Part shown: in pieces, positions 2,956-60,406 of the stretch
Numbering within the stretch: the first letter of the stretch is position 1
How the letters are laid out: each line of letters begins with the position of its first letter
Source: a virus
Strand: one strand, 5' to 3'
IMG/VR virus record: IMGVR_UViG_3300033066_001156
Length of the DNA: 64,000 bases
Translations under genes and position numbers: made by a program
The notes under the pieces: model-generated
Told to the model about the DNA's origin: nothing
The model's database searches: none
The model's input: the letters and a program-made list of their open reading frames with translations, nothing else

Positions 2956-2958
2956 ACC

Positions 2959-5530: not shown

Positions 5531-5546
5531 GGGGTAACCTCTTTCT

Positions 5547-14324: not shown

Positions 14325-14356
14325 CCATAGCCCAGAGGCGTAATTCTGGGCTATGG
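14325..14356 (+). promoter_or_regulatory. Stem-loop (11-bp perfect stem, 10-nt loop) whose 3' arm contains the DNA polymerase start codon; candidate translational operator
   Basis: ccatagcccag (14325-14335) pairs with ctgggctATGg (14346-14356); no U-tract follows, so not a canonical intrinsic terminator. Confidence 0.4.
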
Positions 14357-28415: not shown

Positions 28416-28870
28416 TCTTCCACTGGTTTCCGCCAGTAGCTATCAATCATCTCTTCCATTGTTTTCTTCCCCTCGGGATTCATGCTGTGCACTTTCGGTT
28501 TTTGAACCGGCCATATCCCCGTTTCCTTCATCCAGGATACTAAAGATCGTCCGTCCGGTACATGCGGACAATGGATGAGAGACCCATCAGTAGCTAGGCA
28601 GTTCTTACATGCCCCCATATCGTGATCGAGGGAAGCCTCCTCTATTTTGTACTTGGACATGATGGAAATGGCCTCCTCAACTGTTCTGGCCAGATGCCAT
28701 CCTACTGGACATTTCCTTACATCGTCCATGTAGAGCCGAACCTTGAATCCCTGGTTCAAGTTGATTGGTGGGGGGATGGTGCCTCTCACGAGATATGTCC
28801 GAACCTCTTCTCCCATTCCGCTATCACTTGCTCGGTTGGTCGGGGCAATTTGATGGTTTTCACAAACCAT
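28412..28870 (-). CDS. Receiver (CheY-like)-fold domain protein, paralogue 1 (possibly cyclic-phosphate-processing-receiver-like)
   Basis: KVRLYMDDVR...GWHLARTVEEAISIM...ASLDHDMG...HSMNPEGKKTM; collinear with ORF 40591..41037. Confidence 0.55.
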   Translation of the reverse strand: MVCENHQIAPTNRASDSGMGEEVRTYLVRGTIPPPINLNQGFKVRLYMDDVRKCPVGWHLARTVEEAISIMSKYKIEEASLDHDMGACKNCLATDGSLIHCPHVPDGRSLVSWMKETGIWPVQKPKVHSMNPEGKKTMEEMIDSYWRKPVED

Positions 28871-39919: not shown

Positions 39920-40588
39920 ATGCATAAGCGTCTTCGGTCTTTCGGCCCCTACATTATTCGGCCCCATGGTGGGGAAAAGCCTTGGTGGAGTCTCCACGAA
40001 CATGGGATGCCGGAGATTACCCGATCCTACTACAAGCCGAGCATTTTTGTCGTAGCAGAGCGGGTTTTCAAGAATCTCCCTTTGCTGAACCCCGAGGAAT
40101 TTCGCAAATGTAAAGTTAATAGGTTCCCTACAAGAAGCCTGTTTCACTACTACTCCGAGGTATACCTCGGTGGTGGGTACAAGTGGCTGAATGGAGGGGT
40201 TTTTCCGGAAGCACCCAGATGTGTGACGGCTCTTCTTCCAGGGGGTGTTGGCAAAGTCCCCTACTACGTTGGGGAACCACCACTGGAGGTTCTCCCGGAG
40301 ATTTCACCCGAGGATAACAGAACCATTTACCGAGAGGAATTCGGCCCCCTCAATTTCCTCGCTAAACCCAATAAATGGCCGAAGAAATCGTTTACCCCTT
40401 CGGGCGATTTCGACCCCGAGTGGGTTGCGGATGCCCGGAATGCCTGTCGGATCCTTCTCAAGTATGGGAAGGATTTTGACCCTCAAATCTCATACCTAAA
40501 AGATGGGGTTTCTTACCTTCGGGACTTGTCTTCGGTTCTCTCTGACCGATATGGTGGTGATTGGGGTACAAACCTCACCCGGAGTTAG
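39920..40588 (+). CDS. Hypothetical protein, tandem paralogue copy 2
   Basis: Collinear with 39195..39911. Confidence 0.45.
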   Translation: MHKRLRSFGPYIIRPHGGEKPWWSLHEHGMPEITRSYYKPSIFVVAERVFKNLPLLNPEEFRKCKVNRFPTRSLFHYYSEVYLGGGYKWLNGGVFPEAPRCVTALLPGGVGKVPYYVGEPPLEVLPEISPEDNRTIYREEFGPLNFLAKPNKWPKKSFTPSGDFDPEWVADARNACRILLKYGKDFDPQISYLKDGVSYLRDLSSVLSDRYGGDWGTNLTRS

Positions 40589-40590
40589 CC

Positions 40591-41037
40591 ATGAATGATC
40601 TCCTCATCACAACGCTCGATCCGATCCTCCCCGGTAGCCCCGTGGTTTACATCCCTGAGCTGGGGCACTACATCAGGGCCGCCCTTCCTGTCCGGGTGTT
40701 CCTGGATGACCAGTGGGATCTTCCGGATCGGTACCCGGGGTCCGGGTGGACGTGTGTCCGTACTGTTCAGGAGGCTCAGGCTATCCTTCGCTTTTATCGT
40801 GGAAGGGTGACTCACCTTTCTCTCGACAGTGATCTGGGTGCCCCCGATGGGCTGGAGGGTCCCGATCTGACCGCTTGGCTTTCGGCCGAGTACTTCGTAG
40901 ATGGTAATGATTTCTGGCCTACCGGAGTCATTACCGTCCACAGCCGCAACAGTCAGGGTCGGGCGAAGATGGAGGGGGATATCAAAAACCCCCGGTGCAA
41001 CCCTCGGCCGTATACCTTCAAGCCCGCCCTCATCTAA
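40591..41037 (+). CDS. Receiver (CheY-like)-fold domain protein, paralogue 2
   Basis: VRVFLDDQWD...GWTCVRTVQEAQAIL...LSLDSDLG...VHSRNSQGRAKM; homologous to 28412..28870. Confidence 0.5.
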   Translation: MNDLLITTLDPILPGSPVVYIPELGHYIRAALPVRVFLDDQWDLPDRYPGSGWTCVRTVQEAQAILRFYRGRVTHLSLDSDLGAPDGLEGPDLTAWLSAEYFVDGNDFWPTGVITVHSRNSQGRAKMEGDIKNPRCNPRPYTFKPALI

Positions 41038-41246: not shown

Positions 41247-42065
41247 ATGAAATACAGCAGAGAACATGATGAAGTGGTCCCGGAAAGTCCTATCGAGGAT
41301 TCTTGTCTGAGACTTGGTCTACCGAAGTGGCCTGCAATGCTGGTCCAGGGGGATTCAGTAACCCCGGATCAAGCCCGCGAGATTATCCGAAGAACCGATG
41401 TGTCGTTTCTTCGGGGTATTTGGGGCAATCAGCGAGATGTGGTTACGGCTATTGCCAATATTCTTCGGATGCCCATCTCCCCGGAACCGGGCTCCGGGAA
41501 TTTGGAGGTGTCAAAGCACTGGGAAGCTCGTGATGCATGGGTGGCATCTTGGGGTCCGTTAGACCTTTCCTATATTGGGAATGACTGGGTGTGTTCTACG
41601 TACGTGTACGGGCCTAATGGATGGTGCCACCCTGACGGTACCATTTCCTATCTGAAAAATGTTGGTAAGTGGCCATCCGTCTCGGATCTGGCTCGGGACT
41701 GGATTATGGTCGCCGAGGCGTTTCCTTTCCTGTCTTTGACGGCAACGTTTTTTGACAGGGAATCTTGCGAAGATGACCTTGAGCCAGTTTTTACCTTGAG
41801 TGTGATGGGGGGAAGTGTGACGGCCTACCCAGGGGGCCCAACAGCTATGGCTTTCCCCACGGTCAAAGAAGTTTTCAACTATGGATCTGAATGTGGCCTC
41901 CCTCGATCATGGTTCGAGGACTGGGCAAAAGATCGTTTCCCACCAGCGAGGGTGGCATTCCGGTTCCTGACATTGCGTGCAATTGAACCCCACGATATAA
42001 GACTCCTTCAAAAGTGGTCAGAGATGCTTGGGAAAGCGTTTGGTGGTACTTTTACCTCCCCCTGA
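41247..42065 (+). CDS. Hypothetical protein
   Basis: 272-aa ORF. Confidence 0.45.
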   Translation: MKYSREHDEVVPESPIEDSCLRLGLPKWPAMLVQGDSVTPDQAREIIRRTDVSFLRGIWGNQRDVVTAIANILRMPISPEPGSGNLEVSKHWEARDAWVASWGPLDLSYIGNDWVCSTYVYGPNGWCHPDGTISYLKNVGKWPSVSDLARDWIMVAEAFPFLSLTATFFDRESCEDDLEPVFTLSVMGGSVTAYPGGPTAMAFPTVKEVFNYGSECGLPRSWFEDWAKDRFPPARVAFRFLTLRAIEPHDIRLLQKWSEMLGKAFGGTFTSP

Positions 42066-42098: not shown

Positions 42099-42644
42099 TT
42101 GTGCATGACTCTCATAGCCGTAGATATGGACAATGTGGTTGCTGATTGGGATCAGGGACTGGTTGATCGGTGGGTAGCTGCCAGACCCAATCGCCCTTAT
42201 GTTCGTTTGGAAAACCGAAAGAATTTTTACGCGGACGAAGATTACCCAGAGGAGGACAGACATTTTGTCAAATCTCTTCACCGATCCCCCGGGTTCTATC
42301 GTGAACTGAAACCCATGCCGGGAGCTCTATACGCTCTCAATACCATGAAGGACTTGAACTTTGACGTGATACTTCTGACTTCCCCGGAGGTACATGATTC
42401 ATGCGCTCAGGAGAAAGTCGGATGGGTTCGCGAGCATTTGGGAGATGATTGGGTTCATCATTTGGTTCTTTCTAGGGATAAAACACTTGTTCGGGCGGAT
42501 AAACTGATTGATGACCGGCCTACCATCAAAGGGCGATTTGAACCTACGTGGGAACACCTTGTGTTCACACGTCCCTACAACAAACACATTACGGATAGAA
42601 AACACATCACATGGCTGACTTGGAGAAGCGTTCTAGGAATTTAG
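42099..42644 (+). CDS. HAD-superfamily 5'(3')-deoxyribonucleotidase (NT5C-like)
   Basis: IAVDMDNVVADWD (DxD motif I), LKPMPGALYALNTM, VILLTSP, VLSRDKTLVRADKLIDDRP. Confidence 0.7.
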   Translation: MCMTLIAVDMDNVVADWDQGLVDRWVAARPNRPYVRLENRKNFYADEDYPEEDRHFVKSLHRSPGFYRELKPMPGALYALNTMKDLNFDVILLTSPEVHDSCAQEKVGWVREHLGDDWVHHLVLSRDKTLVRADKLIDDRPTIKGRFEPTWEHLVFTRPYNKHITDRKHITWLTWRSVLGI

Positions 42645-42802
42645 GTAAAATCAACCCATCTGGATTTGTAGTGTTCCGCGGCGGCTGTTGGAGCGACTCC
42701 CACCCGATCCTCGTGCGCGCGGCGGACCGCTACTGGCGCGATCCGACGTACCGGAACGGCTTCGTCGGTTTTCGGGTCGCGCAGCGGGGTTGGGTTTTAT
42801 GA
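42611..42802 (+). CDS. FGE-C-terminal-like mini-protein 1 (63 aa)
   Basis: VFRGGCWSDSHPILVRAADRYWRDPTYRNGFVGFRVAQRGWVL; very GC-rich segment. Confidence 0.4.
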   Translation: MADLEKRSRNLGKINPSGFVVFRGGCWSDSHPILVRAADRYWRDPTYRNGFVGFRVAQRGWVL

Positions 42803-42987
42803 CTGTATTTTCCCATAACAATAGGCGCATACGGGGCGGGCCCTATGACTCTTGGTCCGTGGGTCTTTTTCGATCCTCACATTGCGGGTTCTGTTATTCA
42901 ACGGATGAAAACAGTGACCAGGGTTTTAGACCTAGCCAGAAAGGATGGCACCGATCCCGTGGGCGATTTAAGAAAGCTCAAAAGTAG
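42799..42987 (+). CDS. FGE-C-terminal-like mini-protein 2 (62 aa)
   Basis: ATGA overlap with copy 1; IRGGPYDSWSVGLFRSSHCGFCYSTDENSDQGFRPSQKGW. Confidence 0.35.
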   Translation: MTVFSHNNRRIRGGPYDSWSVGLFRSSHCGFCYSTDENSDQGFRPSQKGWHRSRGRFKKAQK

Positions 42988-43126
42988 TGGCTATCCAATT
43001 CGTCAATCCGCCCAATGTGTCTGTGCATATGTTGATGGGACATCCGACAAGACATCCTCTATTCACCTTGGCTATCGTTCGACGCAACCAGGGTGGGTAG
43101 TGCCGCGTTCTTTTCGTAACTCATAG
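42845..43126 (+). CDS. FGE-C-terminal-like mini-protein 3 (start uncertain; GTG at 42959 possible)
   Basis: C-terminus IRQSAQCVCAYVDGTSDKTSSIHLGYRSTQPGWVV; the N-terminal part overlaps copy 2 in another frame. Confidence 0.3.
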   Translation: MTLGPWVFFDPHIAGSVIQRMKTVTRVLDLARKDGTDPVGDLRKLKSSGYPIRQSAQCVCAYVDGTSDKTSSIHLGYRSTQPGWVVPRSFRNS

Positions 43127-43128
43127 GG

Positions 43129-43362
43129 ATGGCACGCATACAAATAAGCCTAAAGGATCCAGAAACCAGAGCGATCTGGGAGTCCGCATTAGAAGCTAGA
43201 GATGAGGTAGCCAGTTGGCCCCCTTGGAAAAGAGGAGAGGTGTTGTGCTATTCAATTCGAGGGGGCAGTGCGAATGTGGATATTAGAGTGTCAACAACAC
43301 CTACCGGAAGCATGGATATTTCCGCGCGGCTCTCTCAATCCGGTTGGTTATGTCGACTTTAA
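43129..43362 (+). CDS. FGE-C-terminal-like mini-protein 4 (77 aa)
   Basis: IRGGSANVDIRVSTTPTGSMDISARLSQSGWLCRL. Confidence 0.35.
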   Translation: MARIQISLKDPETRAIWESALEARDEVASWPPWKRGEVLCYSIRGGSANVDIRVSTTPTGSMDISARLSQSGWLCRL

Positions 43363-43550
43363 ATGATCGCACCATTACCATTCGGGGTGGTGCCTACTTC
43401 AATTACTCAAATTACTGGGGTGAATTTGAGTGGTTTAACATATCCGTACCTATGGGTTCTGACTTGGATTTAGATTCCGGGCTAAGGGTTTCCCAACGTG
43501 GGTGGCTTGTACGTGGATATATACCAAAACAAAATTCGTCGCTCCGGTAG
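43344..43550 (+). CDS. FGE-C-terminal-like mini-protein 5 (68 aa)
   Basis: IRGGAYFNYSNYWGEFEWFNISVPMGSDLDLDSGLRVSQRGWLVRGY. Confidence 0.35.
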   Translation: MVMSTLNDRTITIRGGAYFNYSNYWGEFEWFNISVPMGSDLDLDSGLRVSQRGWLVRGYIPKQNSSLR

Positions 43551-43722
43551 TTGGCGTTATGTGGGGGCGCACCACGTTCGTCCTTGCTACGGTATTTTAT
43601 CTCGCGCTAATGCCCGTGGCTTTCCTGGTGCCCCATCGTTTGGCTTTCGTACTGTTCAGGTAGGTTGGTATTTTTCTTATGGGGAAAATACCAGCGATGC
43701 ACCCAAAACAGGGACAGAGTAG
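43498..43722 (+). CDS. FGE-C-terminal-like mini-protein 6 (74 aa)
   Basis: IRRSGSWRYVGAHHVRPCYGILSRANARGFPGAPSFGFRTVQVGWYF. Confidence 0.35.
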   Translation: MGGLYVDIYQNKIRRSGSWRYVGAHHVRPCYGILSRANARGFPGAPSFGFRTVQVGWYFSYGENTSDAPKTGTE

Positions 43723-44926
43723 CTTATTCGGTCTAGAAAGTGTGCGTAAACTACGCGCCGATTTCCTTCTTCTCATGAAGAATGCAGATCGTGTCTCTAA
43801 CTGGACTGAAGCCAAGAAATTCTATAACGCCACCAGAGTTTTTCAAGACCATCTGGAACATATTGTTTACAAAGGACTGCTCCCACCCCTTCGCAAACAA
43901 TATGGAGAACGGCTGGCTATAGACGACGTGGCCAAAAGTGTGTGGGTTCTAGTTGTTGAACTGAAGGCCCCTTTGGAAGATCCACAATGGCAAAGTCACA
44001 GATTGCCATGGATGACTTATGATTGGGCCTTTGAAAAATATCTAAAAGACAAGGATAAATGGCTTGCTAGGGTGAGGTCAAAAGCTAGGGCAGCGTGGAA
44101 ATCTCTGGATGAGTTATTCCAATATCTCACAAACAATGAACCTGTCACCATGGACCTTCCTATGTCTGAACAGGTGGACATGGATGGTTTCAAGGTCACG
44201 ATCCATGGGGCGGATGAAACGAAAGCAAAGTACATTCAGAGAATTGAGGATTCTCTGCGCCTTTTCCGGAAGAGGGCCTCGCAAGTTTTCCCCTGGATCC
44301 TCCATCATGCCCCCCGCATTACCATAGAATTCAAGGACGACCTTGGAGGAAATGCAGGCTTATATGGGGCGAGTCACGTTCGCCTGAACGGCTATTGGGC
44401 GGCAAATCCCAAACCAGAGAAGGGCACCCAAATCATCGCTCATGAGATGGGTCACCATGTTTACGAATCTTACCTATCCGAACACGACAAGGATTTCTGG
44501 TCCGCCGCGGTTAGCGATGACTATGGGGACCTTGATCTCCAGTCTGTGTTGGATATGTGGCCGGAGAACGGCAACAAGTACTGGATTGTCAACCATCCTC
44601 TTTTAGATGAGGATCCGGTCCTATATCTGCAAATTTATATGTCCATGCACCCGCCGGATCACTCCCCGTGGTTTACATCAAAGGAGGAGGTTGAGGCCCT
44701 GTTGGCTAAGGGGACGAAAACTGTTCCAGTTCCAAAAAACCCCATTACTGTGTATGCCACCAAGAATCGTGAGGAGGCGTTTTGCGAAGCTTTTGGGAAT
44801 TATGTGGCTTATGGCCCTAGAGCTGTTCCGGCGTTGGTTCGTTGGTGGTTGTCCCAAATTCTCAACACAAGCCGCACGGCTCGTGTTGTAAATCGGGTTA
44901 TACGGTGCCAAGTGTCTGGAGCCTAG
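43679..44926 (+). CDS. Anthrax-lethal-factor/MtfA-like zinc metallopeptidase domain protein (paralogue of the C-terminal domain of 25782..28415)
   Basis: HEMGHHVYESY (HExxH) and downstream REEAFCEAFGNYVAYG (EAFxEAF third-ligand motif). Confidence 0.6.
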   Translation: MGKIPAMHPKQGQSSLFGLESVRKLRADFLLLMKNADRVSNWTEAKKFYNATRVFQDHLEHIVYKGLLPPLRKQYGERLAIDDVAKSVWVLVVELKAPLEDPQWQSHRLPWMTYDWAFEKYLKDKDKWLARVRSKARAAWKSLDELFQYLTNNEPVTMDLPMSEQVDMDGFKVTIHGADETKAKYIQRIEDSLRLFRKRASQVFPWILHHAPRITIEFKDDLGGNAGLYGASHVRLNGYWAANPKPEKGTQIIAHEMGHHVYESYLSEHDKDFWSAAVSDDYGDLDLQSVLDMWPENGNKYWIVNHPLLDEDPVLYLQIYMSMHPPDHSPWFTSKEEVEALLAKGTKTVPVPKNPITVYATKNREEAFCEAFGNYVAYGPRAVPALVRWWLSQILNTSRTARVVNRVIRCQVSGA

Positions 44927-47351
44927 GAACCATTCCCAGAGTGGCAAACGGTATTCCCGTAAGTGGATCCAGATCGGATCCACACATGATAGCTCCTGAT
45001 ACCGTTCCTGGTGATTTTAGATCCACCCCCAACGTCCCTTGAACCACTACTTTTCCAGCAACTGACCTGAATGTCACATCTGTCTGCCCAGTCATGGTGA
45101 TTCCCCCCGTTGTAACCGTGGTGGAGTGACTTCCGGATAGGATTGTTTCAGTGTAACCGGCGGAGGTGTCAACCTCTAATGTGTTGGTTCCGGCTTTGGC
45201 CGTCCAGCGGCCAAGGTGGGTCTCATAGGTTAGGTTTCCAACGGCTAGTGTGGTGGAATGGTTACCCGCAAGCTCCCACGTTTCTTCCCTATCACCAAAT
45301 ACCATCTTGTATCGGTCGACAACCCCCCCAGCCCGACCAGTAGCTGGTGTTGAGCTGAATGTAACCGACCGACTTGGGCCATTCGCAGGATTACCCTCAT
45401 GAGGCCCCCCATAATTGGTGCTCTCCCTCCCGGAGATGATCTGGTCTAGGGATTGGGTTGTCAAACTGATGCGCCCGCCTGAAGAAAGTGTGAGATTATT
45501 TTGTGCTCCCACACTAACCGTTCCTGCATTGGCGACGTTGATGGTTGGTCCCTGAAGTGATACAACCCCCTCGGATCGAACAGTAACGTTTTGCGTTCCA
45601 TCAATCAGAACACTGGGGGCACTAGAGGCTGACATCCCTCCAGGAACGGCATCCCTAGCGGCACTCCCCGTATCAAGGGAACCACCCCCTCGAATTACTA
45701 CCGCCCCAGCGGAGCTACCCAGGCTCAACCCCACATTTCCAGGGCCGGGGGTCCCATGCATCTGAATTCCACCTTGGAGATGGAGGTGTAGAGTCCCACC
45801 CACGGAGAGGGACAAGTCCCCGGCTGTTGCCACTTCGGCCGAGGATGGCCCCCCGGCGATATAAGCTCGAAATCTACCATCCTTTGTAAAAGAGGTGAAA
45901 GTCTGACTTAGCCCTTCGCCTACGGGGGGTGTTAATCGGAAAAGGGTAGCTGCTTGGTCTCCTATTGGAAATCCAATTGACCCAACGATGGAGGGGTCAA
46001 TTTCTCCTGTGGGTGTCATCACTACTGGTCGGAGTGGTACCCCGTAGGTTGGCCTTCCTAGGTAACTGAAGGGATCGTTTCCTACAACACTGCCTAGCAC
46101 CCATTCGATGAAGGGCTGGGTCCCGCTACCCAGAGGATTCCCATCTGATGGGTTGGATGTGGGCAGCTTATCCGCATCAAAACCATCGGTCTGTTCCGTG
46201 ACGGGAAGAGTGCCATTGGATGTATGGGTGACCTCAATCCTATACTCTGTCAGACTTTCCGGTGGGACTCCATCCGCTCCGTTGATAGCACTGCTAATAG
46301 CATTGTCGATTTGCCCGGATGTGGTTAGACCAATTCGATAGAGGGGTTTCCCTCCGTATGTGGTATTGGATATTCCACCGGGGAATGTAGTGTCTACCCT
46401 GTATCCGTTACTATCGACTAGGGATCCCCATTGAAGGAAGTCAAATGGGTCAAGGATTGCGGGTATAGAGGCGTTCCTTGCTGCTTCGAATGCGGATTCA
46501 GTATCTCCTGCACCACGACGGAAAATCAATCCGGGTAGAAGTTGCCCCTCGGGGTAAACAGGTGTTCCGAGACGTGATTGATGGAGTGGGGCCCTCCCAA
46601 CTCCAGTTTGTCTAGGCGCATCCCAGTAGATGCCATCAGACCATACTGTAGAGGGTAAGAGCCTAGCTTCGCGGTGAACAGCACCACCATAAGTTCGGAC
46701 ACCGGATAGGGCGTGGTACTCTTGGAGGGATCGGACAACCAGTGCTTGATCCTCATCCCGAATCCGTATCTCGTTTCCCCTACGGTTAGTAAGAAGCACC
46801 CCCTCATCCAACACAAGGTCACTCCCCTGGCTGGAAGAGGCCATGACATTCCCCTCAGTCAAATGTCGTAATTTGAACCGGGTGCGCTCCATTGACCCGC
46901 TGGCAACTGATCTGTCCCGGACGGTATCCATTCCTTCTCCGGGTTCCATGGGTTGGTATGGGATCCACTCGTGACCCATCCATGCCGCTGGGGGGCACCA
47001 GCTTAGAATCACGGGGGTTTTGGCAGACGCTGCCCCTGTAGACTCACGAACGGCCCATCCAACAAAGCAGATATCCCCCCGCTCTGGGATGGCCCCCATG
47101 AAGTGCCTCCTACCACCATGTGCTAAAGAAATGTCTACTCCGTTGTATTCCTGAATATCATTCTCCCCGGTTAGGAGAACAAGGGTGCATTTGAGTTCTT
47201 CGGGCATCACCTCCTTGACTCTGGCCAAACTGATAGCAAGGCTTGCCCAGTTTATAGATGGGTTTCCAGTTTTTGATAGTGGGGCTAGATCCCGACGTAT
47301 CTCATTCCCACTGATTGCTCTCATGTTCATTTGTGGATTCCGTAATGACAA
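44898..47351 (-). CDS. Tail-fibre/baseplate-like structural protein with Gly/Ser/Thr-rich beta-helical C-terminal region
   Basis: 817-aa ORF on the opposite strand to its neighbours; C-terminal half is repetitive G/S/T/V-rich (GGIQMHGTPGPGNVGLSLGSSAGAVVIRGGGSL...), typical of phage fibre or spike proteins. Confidence 0.55.
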   Translation of the reverse strand: MSLRNPQMNMRAISGNEIRRDLAPLSKTGNPSINWASLAISLARVKEVMPEELKCTLVLLTGENDIQEYNGVDISLAHGGRRHFMGAIPERGDICFVGWAVRESTGAASAKTPVILSWCPPAAWMGHEWIPYQPMEPGEGMDTVRDRSVASGSMERTRFKLRHLTEGNVMASSSQGSDLVLDEGVLLTNRRGNEIRIRDEDQALVVRSLQEYHALSGVRTYGGAVHREARLLPSTVWSDGIYWDAPRQTGVGRAPLHQSRLGTPVYPEGQLLPGLIFRRGAGDTESAFEAARNASIPAILDPFDFLQWGSLVDSNGYRVDTTFPGGISNTTYGGKPLYRIGLTTSGQIDNAISSAINGADGVPPESLTEYRIEVTHTSNGTLPVTEQTDGFDADKLPTSNPSDGNPLGSGTQPFIEWVLGSVVGNDPFSYLGRPTYGVPLRPVVMTPTGEIDPSIVGSIGFPIGDQAATLFRLTPPVGEGLSQTFTSFTKDGRFRAYIAGGPSSAEVATAGDLSLSVGGTLHLHLQGGIQMHGTPGPGNVGLSLGSSAGAVVIRGGGSLDTGSAARDAVPGGMSASSAPSVLIDGTQNVTVRSEGVVSLQGPTINVANAGTVSVGAQNNLTLSSGGRISLTTQSLDQIISGRESTNYGGPHEGNPANGPSRSVTFSSTPATGRAGGVVDRYKMVFGDREETWELAGNHSTTLAVGNLTYETHLGRWTAKAGTNTLEVDTSAGYTETILSGSHSTTVTTGGITMTGQTDVTFRSVAGKVVVQGTLGVDLKSPGTVSGAIMCGSDLDPLTGIPFATLGMVPRLQTLGTV

Positions 47352-48588: not shown

Positions 48589-51500
48589 ATGACCGTCTCA
48601 AAAGATAAGTTGATCGATATCCTTACCCAGGGCTACTACATTTTTTTCCGGAATTCTTCCGGGTTAGCAAGATGTTTGCTCCCATATAAACATACTCCCG
48701 AAACGGCCGAGGCTCTGGTCACTCGATTCATGGCCGGAGAAAAGCCCGGAAAGGAGGGCATTTTCAGTTGGTTGCCCTTGTTTCTCTCAACCGAATCTGG
48801 CCCCTTACATCCCCAAAGCTCCTCTTTGTTGTCCGGATGGACATCCCGCCTTGGTGCTGTTGGTGGCCTCTATGCAATACCGGCTGTTTCTCACGACCCA
48901 TCTAATGAGAAATTCTCGGGGATCGGTCTGGGTTCTCCTGTATTGGATCTCCTGGCCTCGATTCAAGCTGCTTATGGGACTTTATCCGGTTCCACACTGG
49001 AAACTATATTTGAGGGGTTCGTGAGTCAAACCGATTTGCAACCGGCTTTGGTTGCTCGGTTGTTTGTTTCAATCGGTTTGGCTTCAAATGGCGACGTTTG
49101 TTCGATGGCCAGAGGTTGGGGGGGTCAAAAATCTCTTCCCGGGAAAGAGATCCTTGCCGCTCTTGAGGATCCAAGTTATAGCATCGCCATAAGGGCCGAA
49201 GGCTACCTAGCAGAACGCAGGCTTCGAAAACTCACCCAACCCAGATGGGTTATGAGTCCTCTTGGACTTCGATTTTGTTCTGGTCTACGGGAGGAAAGAG
49301 CAAAGGAAATACTGGTACTGTTGGGGTTGATTGGTGACTCCAATCTTATTACAAAAGACCGGATCCAATCCCTCTTGTCCGTGACAGTGTCTTCGATAGA
49401 TGAGCTTTCTATTCTCTACGCTCTTATCTCTGAGACTCCGGTTGAGGATAGGGCCAAAGCTTTTGGGGACTACAAGATATCCCCGGACACTTTCATCGGT
49501 TTAAGACAACCTATTGGTCAGGATTTGGATTATGCCCGTGACATATCAAAATCCGATACCCTGGTTCATCTGACCGCGTCCATTCATGCTACTCTTACTG
49601 AGGGTGTGATCGGCGCCCGTCATATATTAGAGCATTCGGACTTTGAATCGAAGAAGAGATTTGAAGATGTGTCCGAGGCCCTCTATTATCTGGCGTCCCG
49701 AAGTGGCCCGGAGATCGCTCAAGATTTGATGACCACGTTTGAAGATTATCTATTGTCAAATCTACAGCCGATGTCCCGAAGTGGCCTGGAGATCGCTCAA
49801 GATTTGATGGGGTCGAATAATCCAAAAGTAATCGCGGTAGGAAGAAAAATAATGGACAAGCTCCAAATTTTTGATTGGGATAAGTTTGCTTCAGACCTGA
49901 CATCTCCAAGGTGGTTGGGCCTCACTTCCGGGGAACTGAATTTCTGCGTTGGCCTTCGGCGGGAAGATGTTCTCAGGGCCCTTGAATTCTTGAAGACCCA
50001 AATTGAGGGTGGAAAAATACCCTCTTTGATTGCCAGGAAATGTTGCGATATCTTAGGGTCCTCAGAAGTCATATCCTATCTCCATGAGGAGGGCATGGTT
50101 GAATCCGGATGGCAGTTCTTTGGGAATGTTTCCGTTCGTATGACAGGGAGGGATACTCCCATTCCTAGGGACCAAGCCGATAAAGTGTCCTTTATGCTTC
50201 CGGTGCCTATCGAAGAAGACCGCGCCGTAGCCGTGGGGGATACACCGACTATAAAAAACTTCTCCGCTTCCGTCGCTGCCTTGATTAGACGTTGTCGGGC
50301 TTCTTCCACCATTCCTGATCTTCGCCCCCTTATGCGCAGGGGTAATATGTTTTCCCAGAGGGATGCCGAAACGTGCATCCTAGACACTATTGTGTCGCTT
50401 CACCGCAAAAACAAACTGACCCGCGATGTACTCGAAAGGATTGCAAGCTCTTTGCAAGATATGCCCCGTGTGCATGGGTTTCTGGATAACTACTTGCGGT
50501 CCTCTGCGAAACAGTCTCTCAGTACCAAAACAAAAGAAGTCCTTACTTCTACGAAATGGCTCTTGAAGTTTAAGGCCCATGGGCCTGGGTATCAGGAGAT
50601 TGTATGGGGTGGCCGTCTCTCCCCATTTCAAGCGGATCAGATTTTCATTCGTTTGAATCTATCTAGAGAAAAGATTCCTTCGTCGGAGATTCGTGCTTTC
50701 ATCGATGCCGAGATTGATAACCTCCCACGATCGGTCCTACACTCTATTCTTTTCTCCTTATCTTATCTTGGCAAGCTTGAAGATACCACATTCCTTCATG
50801 TCCCATCCAAAAAAATGGTTGATGCAGGAATTTCCACTATCTTTCAAAGATACGGTGGATTTCTACCCCTACCGGAACGAGGGGATATAACATTAGCTCA
50901 AGAGATCGAGTCCAAATACGGACATAAATGGGCTGGAATGGATGTTGATTTCACGGCCAGTTTTTTGTCCCTTGTTACCAGGGGTGGAATTATTCTTAGG
51001 GGTGAGGCATATAGCCCCCCTTATTTTGGGTTGGAGATCGCGAGTTGGTTTGTAAGAGCCGCTATGCAAATAGAGCATGGTGTGGAGTCATGCCTCCTCG
51101 CGCTTTATGAAATATGCAAAAGAACACCTAAGTTTTCTGAGACCTTGACCTTCTGGTCCGATCAAATAGCCACCCAAAAGGACGAATTCAACACCACACT
51201 CGGTCTTGTTTTCAAGGAAATAGCGAGTGGTTCCTTTAATCCCGATACGGATGTGACACAGGCTCAGAAAGACCTTTGGCTGTCTCTCCAATCTGATTCC
51301 GAGATTGCCTCAAGGGGTAATCAAAAGGGGGACACTTTGGGTACCTCGGAAAATCGAAAAGAACCTGTGTCTATCTTTGAGGGTGAGGAGAAAGTGGATG
51401 AAAAGATTGCGATATCACCCACGTGGGTGAACCTGTCTCAACTGGAGGCTGTGCTATCCGTGCCGGTTACGGCATTGATGAGAGAGGGGTTTGCAACTGC

Positions 51501-54500
51501 AAATCTTGCTCCCGAAACGGCCCTATCTGAAGCAAGGGCACTCCTCCCTCTATTTGCTGGGAAACACGGTCCCGTTTCCAATGCCGATTTGGCTTTGTGG
51601 TTCTCTCCTCCAAATGACGCGAAACTCATTGCTTTGCTTTGCATGGCTAGGGAAGGGTACCTACATCCAGATTGGATTTCGTATCTGATTCGGGAATATC
51701 CTTCCTCCTATGACCTTGCCTGTATTCAAGCAATTCTTCCAACACCTAAAGTTCTAGACCTTCCGGCTCTCCGTTCTCTTTTTCAAGAGAACGGGCTGAG
51801 TTTCAGTCACGAGTCTTTTGGGGTTAACCTCACCGTCTACCTGCGAATGATGCAAGCGGGGGGTAAGGAGCCTAATCTTGTCTCAGCTCTTAGACCTGGG
51901 AATACGGATGAGTGGCAGGTAAAGACATTTACAGTTGTGATGTGTGAGATGATTGAGCAGGGGGGTCTGGATCCGGCTCTTCTAAATAAGCCACTGTTTG
52001 AGTTGGAGTCCTTGGCCTCTACAGAGACCGTTCAGAATGCCGTGAGGAAAATCAAGTCCACAATTGAAAAGTCCGCAAAAACTGCCCAATCCGATCGGCC
52101 ACATCCTCATGTGGAGGCCGCGGAGGCTTTTGCGGAAGCCGGGAGAGTTGCAACGAAAACTAGAAAGGCATTTCTGTCAACCTATGGTCTATTTTCCGTT
52201 CGGGATCCCAACTACGATCATTGTTCTACAGAAGTATCAATTACTTTTGCGGATAAAACTTTGGCTGCTGCGGCTGTACCGGGCGATCTTGGGACGCATG
52301 ATTTCTTTCAGGCCATGGCTGCTTATATCCGGCTTTGTGGTGAGGAAGGTAAAACACCTAATTTCCGGTATCTTCTCGCTAATTCCTCTCTCTCCTTAAG
52401 AGACAAGGTCAAAGGATTTTCGCGTATTCTATCGAAATCCGTTGATGAGAAGAAAATCCATGCAGATGCAGTTTTGCGTGTTCGAGAAGACATCCACAAC
52501 GCTAACCTCTTTCAACAAGAGATGCTTTGGCTTGAGGAAGACCTCCTTACCTCTTCGAAAACCAAAGCGGGCGCCTTTGGGCAAAGACGATCCAAGTTAG
52601 AGCAATCTCTTTTGGGTGGGGTTTCCTACATTTCCAAAGAAGGGTCTAAGGTTACTCGGTTGAGGGCCCTCCATACCCATACTGCGGTATCCATTCTTCG
52701 GAACCTATCCGAGGCGGGCCACTCGACTGCAAGTTCTATTCGAAAAGCCTTATGGCAAGAAGTTCTGAATGGTGCTGGGGCGGATGATATTTTTCGTGCC
52801 TTGCTTGCGTTAGTGAAAACAGGTTCTTTTACCCTGGATGACCTCAGAGATCCCTGGACCGGCAGTCTGGTTCGCGGTCTATCACCGAAATTGGAACAAC
52901 TCTTATGGTGTGAGTCGGATGGTGATTCCACAGAAGCTTATGTGGTTGCTGAGGGTATCCTAGACACCTACGTTGGGGATCGCAGAGTAAGAGTCTTCGA
53001 CCGTTTGGTAGATACACTCAAATTCACCTCCACGTTCCATTCCCCAAGCTATTTTCGTGATCTTCTCGTAGAGTTTGAGCGGGAGGGTCTTTTTCCTGGG
53101 TTGGTGGAGAAAATTCTGGATGCCATAGCTAGAGAGAAATATCTTTCTACGGAGGCCCTCCGTTCTTACGACTTTTTTACCGATTTTTCACACGAAAGGA
53201 GGGAGCACCTTAAGAAATACGTTGCTGAGTTAGCTACACGAGAGGATAAGATCAGATATTCCCCACGTAGACTGGCATCTCTTCGCCACTGGCTCAAAGG
53301 TAGCCATTTTTGGATTAAAAGAGATGGGGCCGCAGAATATGCCCTAGTTCCATCGGAGCTTTCGGATAAGCAAATAGACGCAATCCTAAAGTCGTTGCCG
53401 CTACTTGACGAAAAGTTCTTGCCTCCAAGCAATCACGACGGTTTTAAGAACTTTGTTCTTCAATTACATGAGTTGAATCTTCCCGTGGGACAGGTGCAAA
53501 ATCTTTTTGTCAATCTGTTTGCCGCAGGGGTTTGTTTCCCAAGTGATATCCCGACAGCAGTGTCTTTCACTGTAGACCAAGCTTTAAGCTCAATTGGTGG
53601 GTGGTTCACACCCTATCAAAACCTAAAAGATTTGGCTGTTGTACTGACCGACCCCTATCTTTCCTCAAACGGATTCGTGGCGACTCTAGCCTCTCATTTG
53701 AAAATGGTAGGTTCCGCTCCATCTTCCCTTGCTCACGTCATTCGTGTTGCGTTCAACACTCCTGATTCCGTTTCGGGTATGACCGCTGGAGAAAAGGCCA
53801 AATGTATTAAGACTCTGGTGAATCGGGGCGTGGATGCAAACTGGTACACCAACCAAACTCTTTTGGAAGCCGTTTCTATAGCCGAAACTCAGTCCCCAGA
53901 AATTAATGGTTGGGTGGAAGCCGACTCTTTCATGCGTGGGAAAAAAGATGACATGGTGCCTATGGCGGAATCACTCTCGGATCCACATAAAGAAAAGCAC
54001 GAAGCTAAAAATTATGGTGGGGAGAAAGCAAACAAAGATCTGACGGAAGCACTCACGAAGTCGGATTGGCTTTTGACCGACTCCGGTGTCTTTCATTTGG
54101 ATGGGATGTCCGAGGGTAAAGCTAAGGAAATTGCCGAGGCCCTTATTGATTCCACCAGTATGACATCTGCTGGTGAAGATGCCATACAAGCTTTGACCGA
54201 AGTTAGTGGTGGAAACCAAACGGTTGCTAAGAAGATCATATCGTCGCTGCTGGACTGGGCCGACTCACCATCGGAAAGGGTCACACAAAATGCTTTCCAG
54301 TCCACGACGATAGAGAAGCTTCCAAAACCAGGACCCAAAGAATGGGATCTATGTGGGGTTTTGGGACGATACAATCCGGAGATTCAGGGTCATGTTGCCG
54401 CTTATATACTCAAATGTGGGCGCGAAGGTAGGGCTCCTGATTTTCGTCGGCTTTTAACCTCTGGTACCGGAACTGCTATTTCTCACGGCTGGGTTCTTGT

Positions 54501-56070
54501 TTTGACGGAAAGAGCTCTTGAGCTTGGGTACCTGGATAGGGTTAAACTTCGGGAAGCTTCGGAGCAATTGAAGAATTCTCAGTCAATTCACCTTTTTTCA
54601 TTTGGCTCCGATCTTGAGAACTACCTAAATGAACTGGAGGGTAAGGAGACTTTGAAAGAGAGCCTCAACGTGGCTGAAGAACTAACAAGCCCTGGCATGG
54701 CCGCCCTTCAGATGATGTCTATGGGACCCTCAAAAGTATTACTTCGTCTTGCTGAAGAGGTAACATCTGAACGGAAAACCGAACAGTGGAGGGCTCAGGT
54801 AATAGATCATTTGATTTCAAGAGATGATTTCCAATCCTATCTGGAACTTTATGTTGCTCGTGCCCTAACCTATATGGTGGGGAAAAAGAATAACGAAACT
54901 CTTAAGCAAGAAATGGCTCAAGCTGCGGCAGAGTCGATTACTTTTAGCTTTGGTTGCACCCAAGCGGATTTGGGCTCTCCGGCACCAATTTCCCACATTC
55001 CGGATTCTGCCTTGCTGTACGAGGAAATGTACCGAAGGGTGCATCATGCGTATGAACGAAAGGTACAAAATAGAGCCGTTCTCCCACCTGGAGAGTCCTA
55101 CGCCAGGGTTATTGCTAGTGAGGAAAAGAGAATTTCCGAAGCTTTTGGTGTGGATGATGCCCTAAAACAGGTGGCAGCTATGAAAGAGGCCCTTAACCTC
55201 ACTCAGAAGAGGGTATGGGATAAGAAAGCTGCCATGGAACCTCAGGTTGCTACGAAAGTTGCCGTGCCCATGTTGGATCCAGTTAAAATTGCGGCGGGGA
55301 CTGCGAGTGTTGTCGGATCCATGGCAATCACTGATTCAACTGACGAAGTAAAAGGTACAAAGGAAACTCAGAGGATGAAATCAGATTCAAATGTGGCCGC
55401 GGCAAAGGTCGGCACAAAGGCTTCCCAGAAGCCACTGAAAGGAAAGGCAATGGAAGAGGAAGAAGAAGATCTGTTCGAGGATGACGTAGAAGAGGATAAA
55501 GGTCCCGATTTGGGTCAGATTCTCGTTAAGACACTCAAAGACGACGGGAAGACCATCGCTCTCAGAACGGGGGTTAAGCATACCCGGGAGCAGCTAACCG
55601 CGTTGGTGACAAACTTCATCAACAGCAAATCTATTCGTAGGTTTGAGGGTGAATCGGATGAGGCTTACACGGCACGGGCCGAAGCTCAACGAAGTGGCGT
55701 GTCAGCTTTCCTTCTCTCCGATGTTGGGCAGCAGCTTATCACCTATCTCCTTGGTCTTTCGTGGCCTGTGCTGGAAAGCAACATTGAGGATGGTAAGGTT
55801 AGGAAATACGGCGGGATGGTTGCAAGGGAGATCCGTGCGCAGAGTGGTTCTGACCTTCTCGATGGATTTCTGGAAGAGGTTGTCTTCCCCCTCCTAGCGG
55901 TGATTACCTCTGAAGCCAAAAACTTCGGGAAGATGGTTCTTGCTCCGGCAAAGCGGGTTCGCGTTTCAGGTCTCAATGAATCCCCTGCAGACGAGAAAGC
56001 TCGACTCATGGAGCGACTTGCGGAACTTGAGCGGGACGCTAACGTTGTGCCCATGGCTAAAAGCCGGTAG
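48589..56070 (+). CDS. Giant hypothetical protein (2493 aa), predominantly alpha-helical with internal repeats; possible virion/injected protein
   Basis: Uninterrupted 7.5-kb ORF; repeated blocks (SRSGPEIAQDLM x2; L.FC.GLR.E...+.L x2; CGEEGKTPNFRYLL / CGREGRAPDFRRLL); acidic C-terminal stretch EEEEEDLFEDDVEED. Confidence 0.8.
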   Translation: MTVSKDKLIDILTQGYYIFFRNSSGLARCLLPYKHTPETAEALVTRFMAGEKPGKEGIFSWLPLFLSTESGPLHPQSSSLLSGWTSRLGAVGGLYAIPAVSHDPSNEKFSGIGLGSPVLDLLASIQAAYGTLSGSTLETIFEGFVSQTDLQPALVARLFVSIGLASNGDVCSMARGWGGQKSLPGKEILAALEDPSYSIAIRAEGYLAERRLRKLTQPRWVMSPLGLRFCSGLREERAKEILVLLGLIGDSNLITKDRIQSLLSVTVSSIDELSILYALISETPVEDRAKAFGDYKISPDTFIGLRQPIGQDLDYARDISKSDTLVHLTASIHATLTEGVIGARHILEHSDFESKKRFEDVSEALYYLASRSGPEIAQDLMTTFEDYLLSNLQPMSRSGLEIAQDLMGSNNPKVIAVGRKIMDKLQIFDWDKFASDLTSPRWLGLTSGELNFCVGLRREDVLRALEFLKTQIEGGKIPSLIARKCCDILGSSEVISYLHEEGMVESGWQFFGNVSVRMTGRDTPIPRDQADKVSFMLPVPIEEDRAVAVGDTPTIKNFSASVAALIRRCRASSTIPDLRPLMRRGNMFSQRDAETCILDTIVSLHRKNKLTRDVLERIASSLQDMPRVHGFLDNYLRSSAKQSLSTKTKEVLTSTKWLLKFKAHGPGYQEIVWGGRLSPFQADQIFIRLNLSREKIPSSEIRAFIDAEIDNLPRSVLHSILFSLSYLGKLEDTTFLHVPSKKMVDAGISTIFQRYGGFLPLPERGDITLAQEIESKYGHKWAGMDVDFTASFLSLVTRGGIILRGEAYSPPYFGLEIASWFVRAAMQIEHGVESCLLALYEICKRTPKFSETLTFWSDQIATQKDEFNTTLGLVFKEIASGSFNPDTDVTQAQKDLWLSLQSDSEIASRGNQKGDTLGTSENRKEPVSIFEGEEKVDEKIAISPTWVNLSQLEAVLSVPVTALMREGFATANLAPETALSEARALLPLFAGKHGPVSNADLALWFSPPNDAKLIALLCMAREGYLHPDWISYLIREYPSSYDLACIQAILPTPKVLDLPALRSLFQENGLSFSHESFGVNLTVYLRMMQAGGKEPNLVSALRPGNTDEWQVKTFTVVMCEMIEQGGLDPALLNKPLFELESLASTETVQNAVRKIKSTIEKSAKTAQSDRPHPHVEAAEAFAEAGRVATKTRKAFLSTYGLFSVRDPNYDHCSTEVSITFADKTLAAAAVPGDLGTHDFFQAMAAYIRLCGEEGKTPNFRYLLANSSLSLRDKVKGFSRILSKSVDEKKIHADAVLRVREDIHNANLFQQEMLWLEEDLLTSSKTKAGAFGQRRSKLEQSLLGGVSYISKEGSKVTRLRALHTHTAVSILRNLSEAGHSTASSIRKALWQEVLNGAGADDIFRALLALVKTGSFTLDDLRDPWTGSLVRGLSPKLEQLLWCESDGDSTEAYVVAEGILDTYVGDRRVRVFDRLVDTLKFTSTFHSPSYFRDLLVEFEREGLFPGLVEKILDAIAREKYLSTEALRSYDFFTDFSHERREHLKKYVAELATREDKIRYSPRRLASLRHWLKGSHFWIKRDGAAEYALVPSELSDKQIDAILKSLPLLDEKFLPPSNHDGFKNFVLQLHELNLPVGQVQNLFVNLFAAGVCFPSDIPTAVSFTVDQALSSIGGWFTPYQNLKDLAVVLTDPYLSSNGFVATLASHLKMVGSAPSSLAHVIRVAFNTPDSVSGMTAGEKAKCIKTLVNRGVDANWYTNQTLLEAVSIAETQSPEINGWVEADSFMRGKKDDMVPMAESLSDPHKEKHEAKNYGGEKANKDLTEALTKSDWLLTDSGVFHLDGMSEGKAKEIAEALIDSTSMTSAGEDAIQALTEVSGGNQTVAKKIISSLLDWADSPSERVTQNAFQSTTIEKLPKPGPKEWDLCGVLGRYNPEIQGHVAAYILKCGREGRAPDFRRLLTSGTGTAISHGWVLVLTERALELGYLDRVKLREASEQLKNSQSIHLFSFGSDLENYLNELEGKETLKESLNVAEELTSPGMAALQMMSMGPSKVLLRLAEEVTSERKTEQWRAQVIDHLISRDDFQSYLELYVARALTYMVGKKNNETLKQEMAQAAAESITFSFGCTQADLGSPAPISHIPDSALLYEEMYRRVHHAYERKVQNRAVLPPGESYARVIASEEKRISEAFGVDDALKQVAAMKEALNLTQKRVWDKKAAMEPQVATKVAVPMLDPVKIAAGTASVVGSMAITDSTDEVKGTKETQRMKSDSNVAAAKVGTKASQKPLKGKAMEEEEEDLFEDDVEEDKGPDLGQILVKTLKDDGKTIALRTGVKHTREQLTALVTNFINSKSIRRFEGESDEAYTARAEAQRSGVSAFLLSDVGQQLITYLLGLSWPVLESNIEDGKVRKYGGMVAREIRAQSGSDLLDGFLEEVVFPLLAVITSEAKNFGKMVLAPAKRVRVSGLNESPADEKARLMERLAELERDANVVPMAKSR
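49694..49809 (+). repeat. Near-perfect 38-bp direct repeat (2 copies, 78-bp period) inside the giant ORF
   Basis: gcgtcccgaagtggcccggagatcgctcaagatttgatg at 49694-49731 versus atgtcccgaagtggcctggagatcgctcaagatttgatg at 49772-49809; in-frame duplication of SRSG(P/L)EIAQDLM. Confidence 0.8.
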
Positions 56071-59968: not shown

Positions 59969-60148
59969 TATCCTATCGGATCTTACGGCCCATCCGGGGA
60001 GGGTGTGGGTGGGAGGCGGATCCACCCACCTTACCTTCTATTACATCTAGGAATTTTGAACATCCTGGTAGATCCGGGTACCTCCTGGGGGATTACGGAT
60101 TTAGGGCTCAACAACATGGATGGTTTCATTTGAACAAGGAATAACTGC

Positions 60149-60406
60149 ATGTACCAACGAATGAAAGGTGAGAGTTGGATAGCTCTCGATTATGAGCTCT
60201 TGAATACAACTTCTCACTGGAACCCTTCCGTTGACGATGAGGCCGTGGGGTTTAGAGTAACCCAGACGAATTGGTATGGTGTAAGGAAAAGAAATGGGTC
60301 AATCAACATTTCTGGACAGACTGTTGAACACCAGGGTTGTAAATGTTCCAAACCGTGGGTGGGTCATGTTCGCGAGTCTCCCCCAAGGTCAAGCGGCCTT
60401 GATTGA
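60149..60406 (+). CDS. FGE-C-terminal-like mini-protein, dispersed copy
   Basis: MKGESWIALDYELLNTTSHWNPSVDDEAVGFRVTQTNWYG, the same motif as the 42611..43722 array. Confidence 0.35.
   Translation: MYQRMKGESWIALDYELLNTTSHWNPSVDDEAVGFRVTQTNWYGVRKRNGSINISGQTVEHQGCKCSKPWVGHVRESPPRSSGLD

Follow-up and report, generated by a model that had tools for sequence, protein, structure and literature searches.

Mini-genes of a phage lineage that resemble the variable ends of FGE-type diversity-generating retroelement targets

Introduction

The question raised by the locus described here is what kind of protein could be encoded by a row of six very short genes in a viral genome. The window analyzed, a stretch of 64,000 nucleotides (64 kb) from the IMG/VR virus record IMGVR_UViG_3300033066_001156 to which all coordinates refer, contains six short consecutive open reading frames (ORFs) on the + strand at 42611–43722. 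An initial annotation, made from the letters of the window, described them as a tandem array of mini-genes reduced to the C-terminal motif of the formylglycine-generating enzyme (FGE)-sulfatase fold, and a listing of the ORFs over 41.5–45.5 kb bears out their presence. Judged from their sequences, these genes and two remote copies form a family that appears to work like, and to descend from, the variable end of the target proteins of FGE-type diversity-generating retroelements (DGRs). We regard as reasonably probable a composite explanation in which copy 1 of the array is of DGR type and the other copies are its diverged, selected duplicates in a family with fast turnover.

A Hypervariable Core in Copy 1

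The phage, IMG/VR, and exact-protein collections searched did not contain the window. A profile search found the mini-proteins in Logan and ENA assemblies, with about 20 contigs belonging to the same phage lineage, most of them about 99% identical to the window. Copy 1 (42611–42802, + strand) encodes 63 residues that comprise a 22-residue leader, the sequence RGGCW, a variable loop, and the sequence GFRVAQRGWVL; its homologues in these assemblies (P0003, P0008, and P0009) are identical in the flanks but differ in the core. The core lies in a GC-rich, A-poor patch (42671–42795, + strand) that extends from the RGG codons to the GC-rich element CGGGTCGCGCAGCGGGG. As the initial annotation had observed, copy 1 stands out strongly from its surroundings in composition, with a GC content of 65–68% at 42650–42800 as compared with about 50% around it; the region is also A-poor and has a negative AT skew. 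Within the patch, a hypervariable segment of 84 nt (42685–42768, + strand), designated a putative DGR variable region (VR), is represented by five haplotypes. The flanks of this core are at least 99.6% identical, whereas there are 23–35 differences per 84 nt between haplotypes. Haplotype A is found in the window and in relatives L148, L156–L159, and L161, and haplotype A′, with one change relative to A, in L147 and L149. Haplotype A″, from L016, is a mosaic that is B-like in its 5′ part and then A′-like. Haplotype B is present in L014 and L015 and, in addition, in the second of two tandem genes of L017, the first of which carries haplotype C.

In the core, 44 of the 84 sites are variable as compared with 3 of 108 in the remainder of the copy 1 gene. 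The variable sites are distributed over codon positions 1, 2, and 3 as 20, 15, and 9 (35 of 44 at first or second positions), and the reading frame is open in every haplotype. The invariant core sites include a single A among 40, as compared with 19% A in the flanks. When the variable sites are masked as N, the core scaffold reads GTTGGNNNNANNNCNNCNCGNNNNNNGTGCGCGNNNCGNNCCGCNNCNGGNNCGNNCCNNCGNNCNNGNNNGNCNNCNTCNGTTTTCGG, and a cognate template would have A at each N. The GC-rich 17-mer that ends the patch follows the GFR codons and is a candidate for an initiation of mutagenic homing sequence, which only a cognate template repeat (TR) could define; no convincing inverted repeat (hairpin) was found downstream of copy 1. 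Haplotype B was also considered as a template for T-directed mutagenesis of the opposite strand and was rejected, its differences from haplotype A falling on G, T, and A alike.

Comparison with the Template Repeats of Bacterial DGRs

A pattern scan of metagenomes returned at least 120 unrelated FGE-type loci built on the codon scaffold of copy 1, with no relatives of this phage among the matches listed. Two of the loci, L030 and L057, are complete bacterial DGRs that have an RVT_1 reverse transcriptase (RT) and an A-rich TR; each contains one TR and two A-poor variable repeats, which are located at the ends of FGE-sulfatase proteins. A third, L084, examined for its repeats only, has an A-rich/A-poor repeat pair on the same scaffold. 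The TRs of these three loci were aligned without gaps to the 84-nt phage segment and serve as proxies for a cognate template. Their adenines coincide with phage variable sites in 14 of 15 (L030), 13 of 15 (L057), and 13 of 13 (L084) cases (Fisher P = 3e-6, 6e-5, and 1e-6, respectively), and at the phage invariant sites the same TRs are 78–89% identical to the phage. Copy 1 also shows 79% identity over 112 nt to the 3′ terminus of a kinase-FGE gene from a bacterium (L095, 73% GC), in which 15 of 17 adenines coincide with phage variable sites (P = 8e-4).

With a variable region at the 3′ end of an ORF on an FGE scaffold, copy 1 has the codon scaffold of genuine VR/TR pairs. Because its scaffold and variable sites match the template repeats, the GC-rich patch at 42671–42795 corresponds to the stretch that a DGR template would overwrite. 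This correspondence points more strongly than anything else to copy 1 being, now or until recently, the variable region of a DGR. The core of copy 1 is very probably DGR-derived; that a DGR still acts on it is possible, and we lean against it.

Organization of the Array and Its Remote Copies

The six array genes occupy reading frames 1, 0, 1, 0, 2, and 0. Copy 1 shares 34 nt with the 3′ end of the upstream NT5C gene, and its stop codon forms an ATGA overlap with the start of copy 2 (42799–42987, + strand; 62 residues), the sequence of which is 100% identical across all relatives found. Copy 3 (42845–43126, + strand) encodes 93 residues when read from the ATG at 42845, as it is annotated in the Logan/ENA assemblies (P0006), and then overlaps copy 2 by 143 nt in a different frame; an alternative GTG at 42959 gives a product of 55 residues. 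Copy 4 (43129–43362, + strand; 77 residues; P0007 identical) has the longest leader and overlaps copy 5 (43350–43550, + strand; 66 residues; P0001 identical) by 13 nt. Copy 6 (43498–43722, + strand; 74 residues) has a GTG start, and its tail overlaps the start of a peptidase gene. An ATGA overlap, one of the two kinds of linkage initially described, joins copies 1 and 2, whereas most other neighbors overlap by about 13–140 nt.

Two further copies are remote from the array. The one at 60149–60406 (copy 8, + strand; 85 residues; …KGESW…GFRVTQTNW…; P0002 in relatives), which the initial annotation had listed upstream of a sigma-factor gene (60529–61296), is real, and directly before it lies another that was absent from that annotation (copy 7, 59965–60144, + strand; 59 residues; …PIRGGCGW…GFRAQQHGW…), which is kept in relatives (P0004; L138–L141). 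The pattern R..Q.GW has seven matches in the six-frame translation of the window, all on the + strand and all within the copies: six in the array and one at 60103, with an eighth unit, reading Q.NW, at 60248. In 200 shuffled sequences the mean number of matches was 0.34 and the maximum 3.

All eight copies follow a common plan. A leader of about 10–40 residues precedes an [R/K]-[G/S]-G-x-[W/Y] block, which is followed by a loop of about 25–35 residues with a single near-invariant Pro and by a C-terminal G(F/Y/L)R-x-x-Q-x-G-W segment (Q.NW in copy 8) with a short tail. The RGG-type block had been assigned to copies 1, 2, 5, and 6 alone; in the alignment it is present in all eight. No DNA-level repeats were found between copies, in agreement with the earlier view of an expanded gene family rather than a recent duplication. 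The codons for the conserved Arg differ among copies (CGG, AGA, CGT, and AGG), and the conservation is therefore at the level of the protein.

Purifying Selection on Copies 3–6

The coding test compared the window with L156 over copies 3–6, where the two are 86–88% identical, copies 1, 2, 7, and 8 being identical or nearly so between relatives. A group of assemblies (ERR159765xx) and ERZ650281 have a recombination breakpoint at about 42988, to the left of which identity to the window is 100% and to the right of which, over copies 3–6, it is 86–88%. The dN/dS ratio in the proposed frame is 0.32 for copy 3 (42959–43123), 0.15 for copy 4 (0.72 and 1.14 in the other frames), 0.45 for copy 5 (0.75 and 2.04), and 0.17 for copy 6 (2.48 and 1.88). 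For all four copies the proposed frame has the lowest ratio of the three; the other frames have values of 0.5–2.5 and contain stop codons. In the pooled count, in which short overlaps between copies enter twice, there are 47 nonsynonymous and 51 synonymous substitutions, whereas 76% would be nonsynonymous under neutrality (binomial P = 1.7e-9). The translations of the window and L156 are unchanged in the motif core (the R/K-G/S-G block, the R of the GFR strand, and the Q, G, and W), and replacements are confined to leaders, loops, and tails, save for a Pro to Leu change at the near-invariant Pro of copy 4.

These substitution patterns indicate that copies 3–6 are translated and under purifying selection, and hence that the mini-genes are neither relics nor non-coding repeats. 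The small ORFs are thus conserved as coding sequence in relatives (dN/dS of 0.15–0.45), the opposite of what the initial annotation had named as grounds for regarding them as non-coding repeats or chance ORFs. Among its suggestions, that of relics of a diversifying gene of C-type-lectin fold comes closest with regard to origin and fails with regard to status, the copies being selected; the DGR-like hypervariability of copy 1 among near-identical genomes had escaped notice there.

Distant peptidase-bearing IMG/VR loci with 24–43% identity (best segment) have no array, and the full sequence of the 485-kb phage LR745208.1, which has a DnaB 71% identical to that of the window, contains neither the mini-gene family nor a DGR RT.

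Relation to the FGE-Sulfatase Fold

Copy 1 matches the Pfam profile PF03781 (FGE-sulfatase) with 26.6 bits and an E-value of 5.9e-6 (gathering cut-off 23.3). The match is limited to positions 212–254 of the 255 in the profile, that is, to the last 43, and copy 1 also aligns weakly with the last ~40 residues of the PDB chains of CalU17 and PvdO. Copies 2–6 gave no individual Pfam matches (the two remote copies were outside the Pfam scan), and PHROG gave nothing significant for any of the eight, so the profile check that had been proposed succeeds for copy 1 against Pfam and fails for copies 2–6 against Pfam and for every copy against PHROG. A family profile, built from copies 2–8 and the extra copies of relatives with copy 1 excluded, was compared with the C termini of DGR-type FGE proteins by hhalign and matched them from RGG to GFR with a probability of 92% and a P-value of 6.7e-7, from which it follows that the whole family derives from the C-terminal end of the fold. 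The homology to the last ~45 residues of the FGE-sulfatase/C-type-lectin fold that the initial annotation had recognized is thus supported by Pfam for copy 1 and by profile comparison for the family.

The N-terminal part of the FGE fold, its first ~210 residues, was not found in about 90 kb (the window and ~25 kb of relatives' flanks); the search used tblastn with three full FGE domains, and its matches covered the last ~40 residues only. With only 43 of the 255 profile positions present, the mini-genes are fragments of the FGE fold and do not, in structural terms, belong to the FGE-sulfatase domain family. Prediction of the structure of the mini-protein alone, also proposed earlier, gave a model of copy 1 (AlphaFold, 15-sequence alignment) in which the RGGxW and GFRxx strands are predicted with low confidence (pLDDT 48.7).

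Expansion, Contraction, and Recombination of the Family

The family has eight members in the window and 7–10 in relatives. The array comprises seven copies in L014–L016, L147, and L149; in the window and L148, a deletion of 148 nt, with its junction right after the QVGW codons, has fused copies 6 and 7 of the longer form. L017 (ERZ650281) has two tandem VR-type genes, a and b, with different leaders on one scaffold, and L156 has an extra family member at 14662–14865, between an 810-residue baseplate-like gene and its neighbor. In L160, a hybrid of copy 5 with another unit is accompanied by a new copy (566–799 and 973–1185), and other genes take the place of the downstream peptidase. Variation in copy number across related phages, which the initial annotation had suggested looking for, is therefore evident in the seven-copy relatives, the copy 6/7 fusion, and the extra copies of L156 and L160. 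From L017, L156, L160, and the fusion, the family can be seen to expand, contract, and recombine at the conserved motif, apparently with no tie to the peptidase. An obligatory link of the mini-proteins to the neighboring peptidase finds no support, the L160 array having no such gene downstream and two or three copies being located elsewhere in the genome.

Search for the Retroelement

Several observations weigh against the composite explanation, and they begin with the retroelement itself. Neither a TR nor an RT was found in the window with YxDD/LTSQ motifs, the masked scaffold, or 3′-flank patterns, and RVT_1 had no match among the 49 window ORFs scanned with Pfam. The contigs of relatives, which cover the window-equivalent positions −7 kb to +82 kb, also yielded no RT or TR; their coverage reaches about 50 kb on the upstream side of copy 1 and 40 kb on its downstream side, about 90 kb in total. 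In phage DGRs with non-adjacent targets, the target is usually at most 50 kb from the RT (PMC5758913, PMC4891356). Searches by tblastn with two DGR RTs gave nothing in the window, the relatives' loci, or LR745208.1, no TR was present in 1.13 Mb of non-metagenome sequence (the window, close relatives, distant IMG/VR loci, and LR745208.1) when up to 5 mismatches were allowed, and pattern scans of viral and genome contig collections were likewise without a TR. The absence of RT and TR is not proven by these results because the genome is incomplete and probably at least 200 kb long. Since no cognate TR was found, the adenine specificity rests on proxy TRs from unrelated DGRs, and without cognate TR and RT the membership of copy 1 in the class of DGR targets is unproven.

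Further observations on this side concern the variation itself. There are about 5 haplotypes in at least seven data sets, stable within studies; one of them is a mosaic, and B is found in two different gene contexts. Ongoing mutagenesis would account for this pattern no better than recombination among a small number of old alleles. Recombination clearly moves copy 1 alleles around, and the diversification of copy 1 may be episodic or historical. In addition, 9 of the 44 variable sites are at third codon positions, and if each variable site corresponded to an A in the template, the A content of that template would reach an unusually high 54%. On the side of the product, AlphaFold yields no confident autonomous fold for copy 1, and a gene for the N-terminal part of an FGE fold was not detected in about 90 kb.

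Proposed Explanation and Alternatives

In the composite explanation, each gene would consist of only the variable-region module of a C-type-lectin protein of the FGE-sulfatase type, placed behind a short unique leader; the module would comprise the strand RGGxW, a loop of 25–35 residues with one conserved Pro, the strand GFRxx, and the family-specific QxGW. Adenine-directed mutagenic retrohoming from a TR located outside the available sequence would have overwritten the 84-nt core of copy 1 on several occasions, with hardly any change elsewhere in the genome. The remaining copies would be older duplicates that have drifted beyond the reach of the template, can no longer be rewritten, and are retained by selection as fixed versions of the loop-on-scaffold module, and unequal recombination at the conserved motif would make the array grow, shrink, and hybridize. 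The variable loop may be held by the RGGxW and GFRxx strands, which are paired in the parent fold, and the products could be small ligand-binding modules, free-standing or docking onto a partner, with oligomers a possibility. That the VR-only proteins of ~60 residues are functional hypervariable binders, or dock onto a virion or host protein, with copy 1 as the generator and the array as a heritable archive of past specificities, is a further step that we consider unlikely. A bolder version, offered as speculation, is that a DGR of the host rewrites copy 1 in trans and that the phage module mimics the FGE-type antigen sensors of the host.

The alternative to be taken most seriously, while still somewhat unlikely in our judgment, is that a DGR, since lost, diversified ancestral tandem VR-type mini-genes and that haplotypes A, B, and C are leftover alleles of those paralogues, moved between genomes and between tandem copies by homologous recombination and unequal crossing-over. 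Few haplotypes exist, none of them changes within a study, and A is common to four data sets; B is found in gene a of L014 and L015 as well as in its tandem paralogue, gene b, of L017; the L016 allele joins a 5′ part of B to a 3′ part of A′; and a clear recombination breakpoint separates the window from L156 at about 42988. The lack of RT and TR from −50 kb to +40 kb fits such a loss, for which there is a parallel in Treponema denticola strains that retain targets after losing both (PMC4891356). The scaffold, however, is 100% conserved between haplotypes, silent positions included, while 52% of the sites vary, and such conservation would be most readily upheld by a template that imposes it again and again; moreover, most of a genome of probably at least 200 kb is unseen. 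Diversification in trans, or capture from the host, in which the GC-rich patch would be a piece of a host DGR target (variable region and homing signal) that the host DGR rewrites in the course of infection or that is acquired anew, time after time, from variable regions of the host, we take to be quite improbable. It would account for a patch of 65–68% GC in a phage of 50% GC and for the 79% identity of its DNA to the end of the kinase-FGE gene L095, and the IS66 element of a relative, closest to cyanobacterial copies, would fit a cyanobacterial source. DGR components do function in trans experimentally (PMC5758913), and multicellular cyanobacteria commonly possess DGR targets of the FGE type (PMC7159879, PMC10907252). 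On the other side, the scan of 185,579 species genomes returned no host sequence with the copy 1 scaffold. We know of no precedent for a phage variable region rewritten by a host DGR.

The arrangement of tandem partial copies beside a variable one, with an identical core in two gene contexts and a mosaic haplotype, is also reminiscent of pilE/pilS-type cassettes, in which copy 1 would be the expression site and the downstream copies silent donors for gene conversion. Copies 2–8, however, share no DNA homology with copy 1, flanks included, which speaks against a pilS-type system; haplotypes A, B, and C match no array copy; and each of copies 2–8 possesses a start and a stop codon of its own, with purifying selection acting at the protein level (seen in the test of copies 3–6). 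The cassette scheme is largely refuted for copies 2–8 and very improbable overall. Scarcely credible is a family of precursors like those of ribosomally synthesized and post-translationally modified peptides, with conserved flanks, a hypervariable core, and maturation by the neighboring metallopeptidase. Short ORFs in tandem, conserved at the ends, variable in between, and adjacent to the gene of an HExxH protein, invite the comparison, which is countered by the absence of a modifying enzyme among the neighboring genes and the homology of the conserved blocks to structural strands of the FGE fold, as well as by the L160 array without the downstream peptidase and the copies at two or three other loci. 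That the ORFs are functionless debris, whether from a former DGR target whose 3′ ends have decayed or as non-coding repeats or chance ORFs, has a probability close to negligible. The missing Pfam matches of copies 2–6 and PHROG matches of all eight, the low AlphaFold confidence, and the frequent skipping of copy 1 by gene callers would be expected of debris; dN/dS values of 0.15–0.45 confined to the proposed frames (pooled P = 1.7e-9) refute it for copies 3–6, the frame is open in all copies of all relatives, with a start about 10–40 codons before the RGG, and the invariant R, Q, and W are retained and encoded by different codons.

Relation to Known Systems

The closest known proteins are the FGE-type DGR variable proteins (category 'b' or CLec1 of Wu et al. 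2018, PMC5758913; prototype TvpA of T. denticola), which have the same C-terminal RGGSW…R.A.R….P……GFR module. Like copy 1, these targets have the VR at the 3′ end of the ORF and use the same nucleotide scaffold, and the variation in copy 1 is at the positions of AAC codons in FGE-type DGR templates. The FGS-domain sensors of cyanobacteria and Thiohalocapsa (PMC7159879, PMC10907252) belong to the same protein class. Known FGE-type targets, however, contain the whole domain of ~250 residues and often extra domains, whereas the phage genes retain the last ~45 residues only, preceded by a leader of 10–40 residues, followed by an added QxGW tail, and present as 8–10 diverged paralogues; copy 1 also differs in that no RT or TR was found within 40–50 kb.

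Short forms are on record in bacteria. Truncated or 'suspicious' FGE-type DGR targets of 58–136 residues occur in T. denticola isolates (PMC4891356), and the smallest catalogued DGR targets have 44 residues (PMC5758913). The T. denticola forms resemble the phage genes in being short ORFs that are essentially an FGE-type variable region, with or without a core DGR, but they are single, chromosomal, and treated as probable defects, whereas the phage genes are tandem and selected and the short form is the rule. Tandem targets are known as well, with eight in a Stenotrophomonas DGR and three diversified FGE domains in one protein (PMC5758913, PMC10907252). Like the a/b pair of L017, they show VR units multiplied in tandem on one scaffold; in those DGRs all units match one TR and stay diversifiable, whereas in the phage only copy 1 (and gene b of L017) keeps the scaffold. 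As far as checked, the earlier statement that no phage system of isolated FGE-fold C-terminal peptides has been described holds, with the short bacterial targets as the nearest records (PMC4891356, PMC5758913). What is new is the occurrence in a large phage of tandem, selected, VR-only mini-genes, one of which is hypervariable in the manner of a DGR target with no retroelement nearby.

In the current view, a DGR-diversified protein tolerates massive variation only with the full C-type-lectin/FGE fold, and a selected family made of two strands and a loop challenges that assumption. It would also amount to a minimal scaffold, taken from nature, on which loops can be diversified, which makes it relevant to binder engineering, and if the VR-only proteins are functional binders, they would be the smallest DGR-diversified scaffold known. 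The family also provides a test case for the fate of DGR targets, through duplication, escape from the template, and retention, and for whether a DGR variable region in a large phage can sit at least 40 kb from its retroelement or be served in trans. Should the host be a cyanobacterium with DGR-diversified FGE sensors, the family could bear on the counter-measures of the phage against them.

Genomic Context and Host

The gene directly upstream of the array, NT5C (42099–42644, + strand), encodes a 5′(3′)-deoxyribonucleotidase (Pfam E-value 7.5e-22). Because no promoter-like or terminator-like site was found on the + strand between NT5C and the array in the scan, the two are probably on one transcript. 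Informative promoters, terminators, and Shine-Dalgarno motifs were not found, and the genes of the phage are generally without Shine-Dalgarno sequences. Directly downstream of the array, a gene at 43679–44926 (+ strand) encodes a putative zinc metallopeptidase of 415 residues with an HExxH motif (HEMGH). The initial designation 'LF-like' found no support, the protein having a weak SprT-like match below the cut-off (E = 0.0065) and no PHROG or PDB match. An 877-residue ORF (25782–28415) and the 415-residue protein have a common C-terminal EEAFxEAF, encoded in a 30-nt direct repeat that is 77% identical; the two may be paralogous metallopeptidase-like proteins, and neither passes the Pfam cut-off. 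The array adjoins a convergent structural block that includes an 817-residue protein (44898–47351, − strand) with a weak match to the VgrG-type DUF2345 and a protein of 2493 residues (48589–56070).

A cyanobacterial host is weakly suggested by the IS66 element of a relative and by the general lack of Shine-Dalgarno motifs. That element is part of an insertion in L142 (SRR12486993_110262, positions 1–5700) comprising an IS66-family transposase, McrBC, and two C5 DNA methylases; it adjoins a truncated CYTH gene and a Macro gene, and the transposase is closest to copies on cyanobacterial plasmids, with 38–40% amino acid identity. The phage genome is probably very large. The DnaB-like helicase encoded at 9371–10912 is 71% identical to that at 293821–294699 of LR745208.1, the 485-kb sequence of an 'uncultured phage', and a protein encoded just past the right end of the window is also present on a JGI contig of 200,245 nt.

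Other features of the window concern genes outside the array. An SNF2-family helicase (5547–8594) and a family-A DNA polymerase (14353–19413) each contain a LAGLIDADG intein (Intein_splicing, LAGLIDADG_3). Free-standing homing endonucleases are also present, a GIY-YIG enzyme at 23921–24574 and, to the left of the window in relatives, an HNH enzyme (L150, 3168–3635, − strand), and they fit the mosaic, recombining genomes of the lineage. The ORF of 272 residues at 41247–42065, found in the window and L148, corresponds to two genes (234 and 218 residues) in L014, L016, and L147; at this position the window is ~553 nt shorter than L014 (8082–9455), which gives the fused gene. Two small proteins (28412–28870, − strand, and 40561–41037, + strand) contain a cREC_REC (cyclic-phosphate processing receiver) domain, and the genome also encodes one or more RNA ligases, a CYTH-Macro pair, a CCA-adding enzyme, a class-I Trp/Tyr tRNA synthetase, and a tRNA-Met. 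Together with the cREC_REC proteins, these look like a set for RNA repair or the protection of translation.

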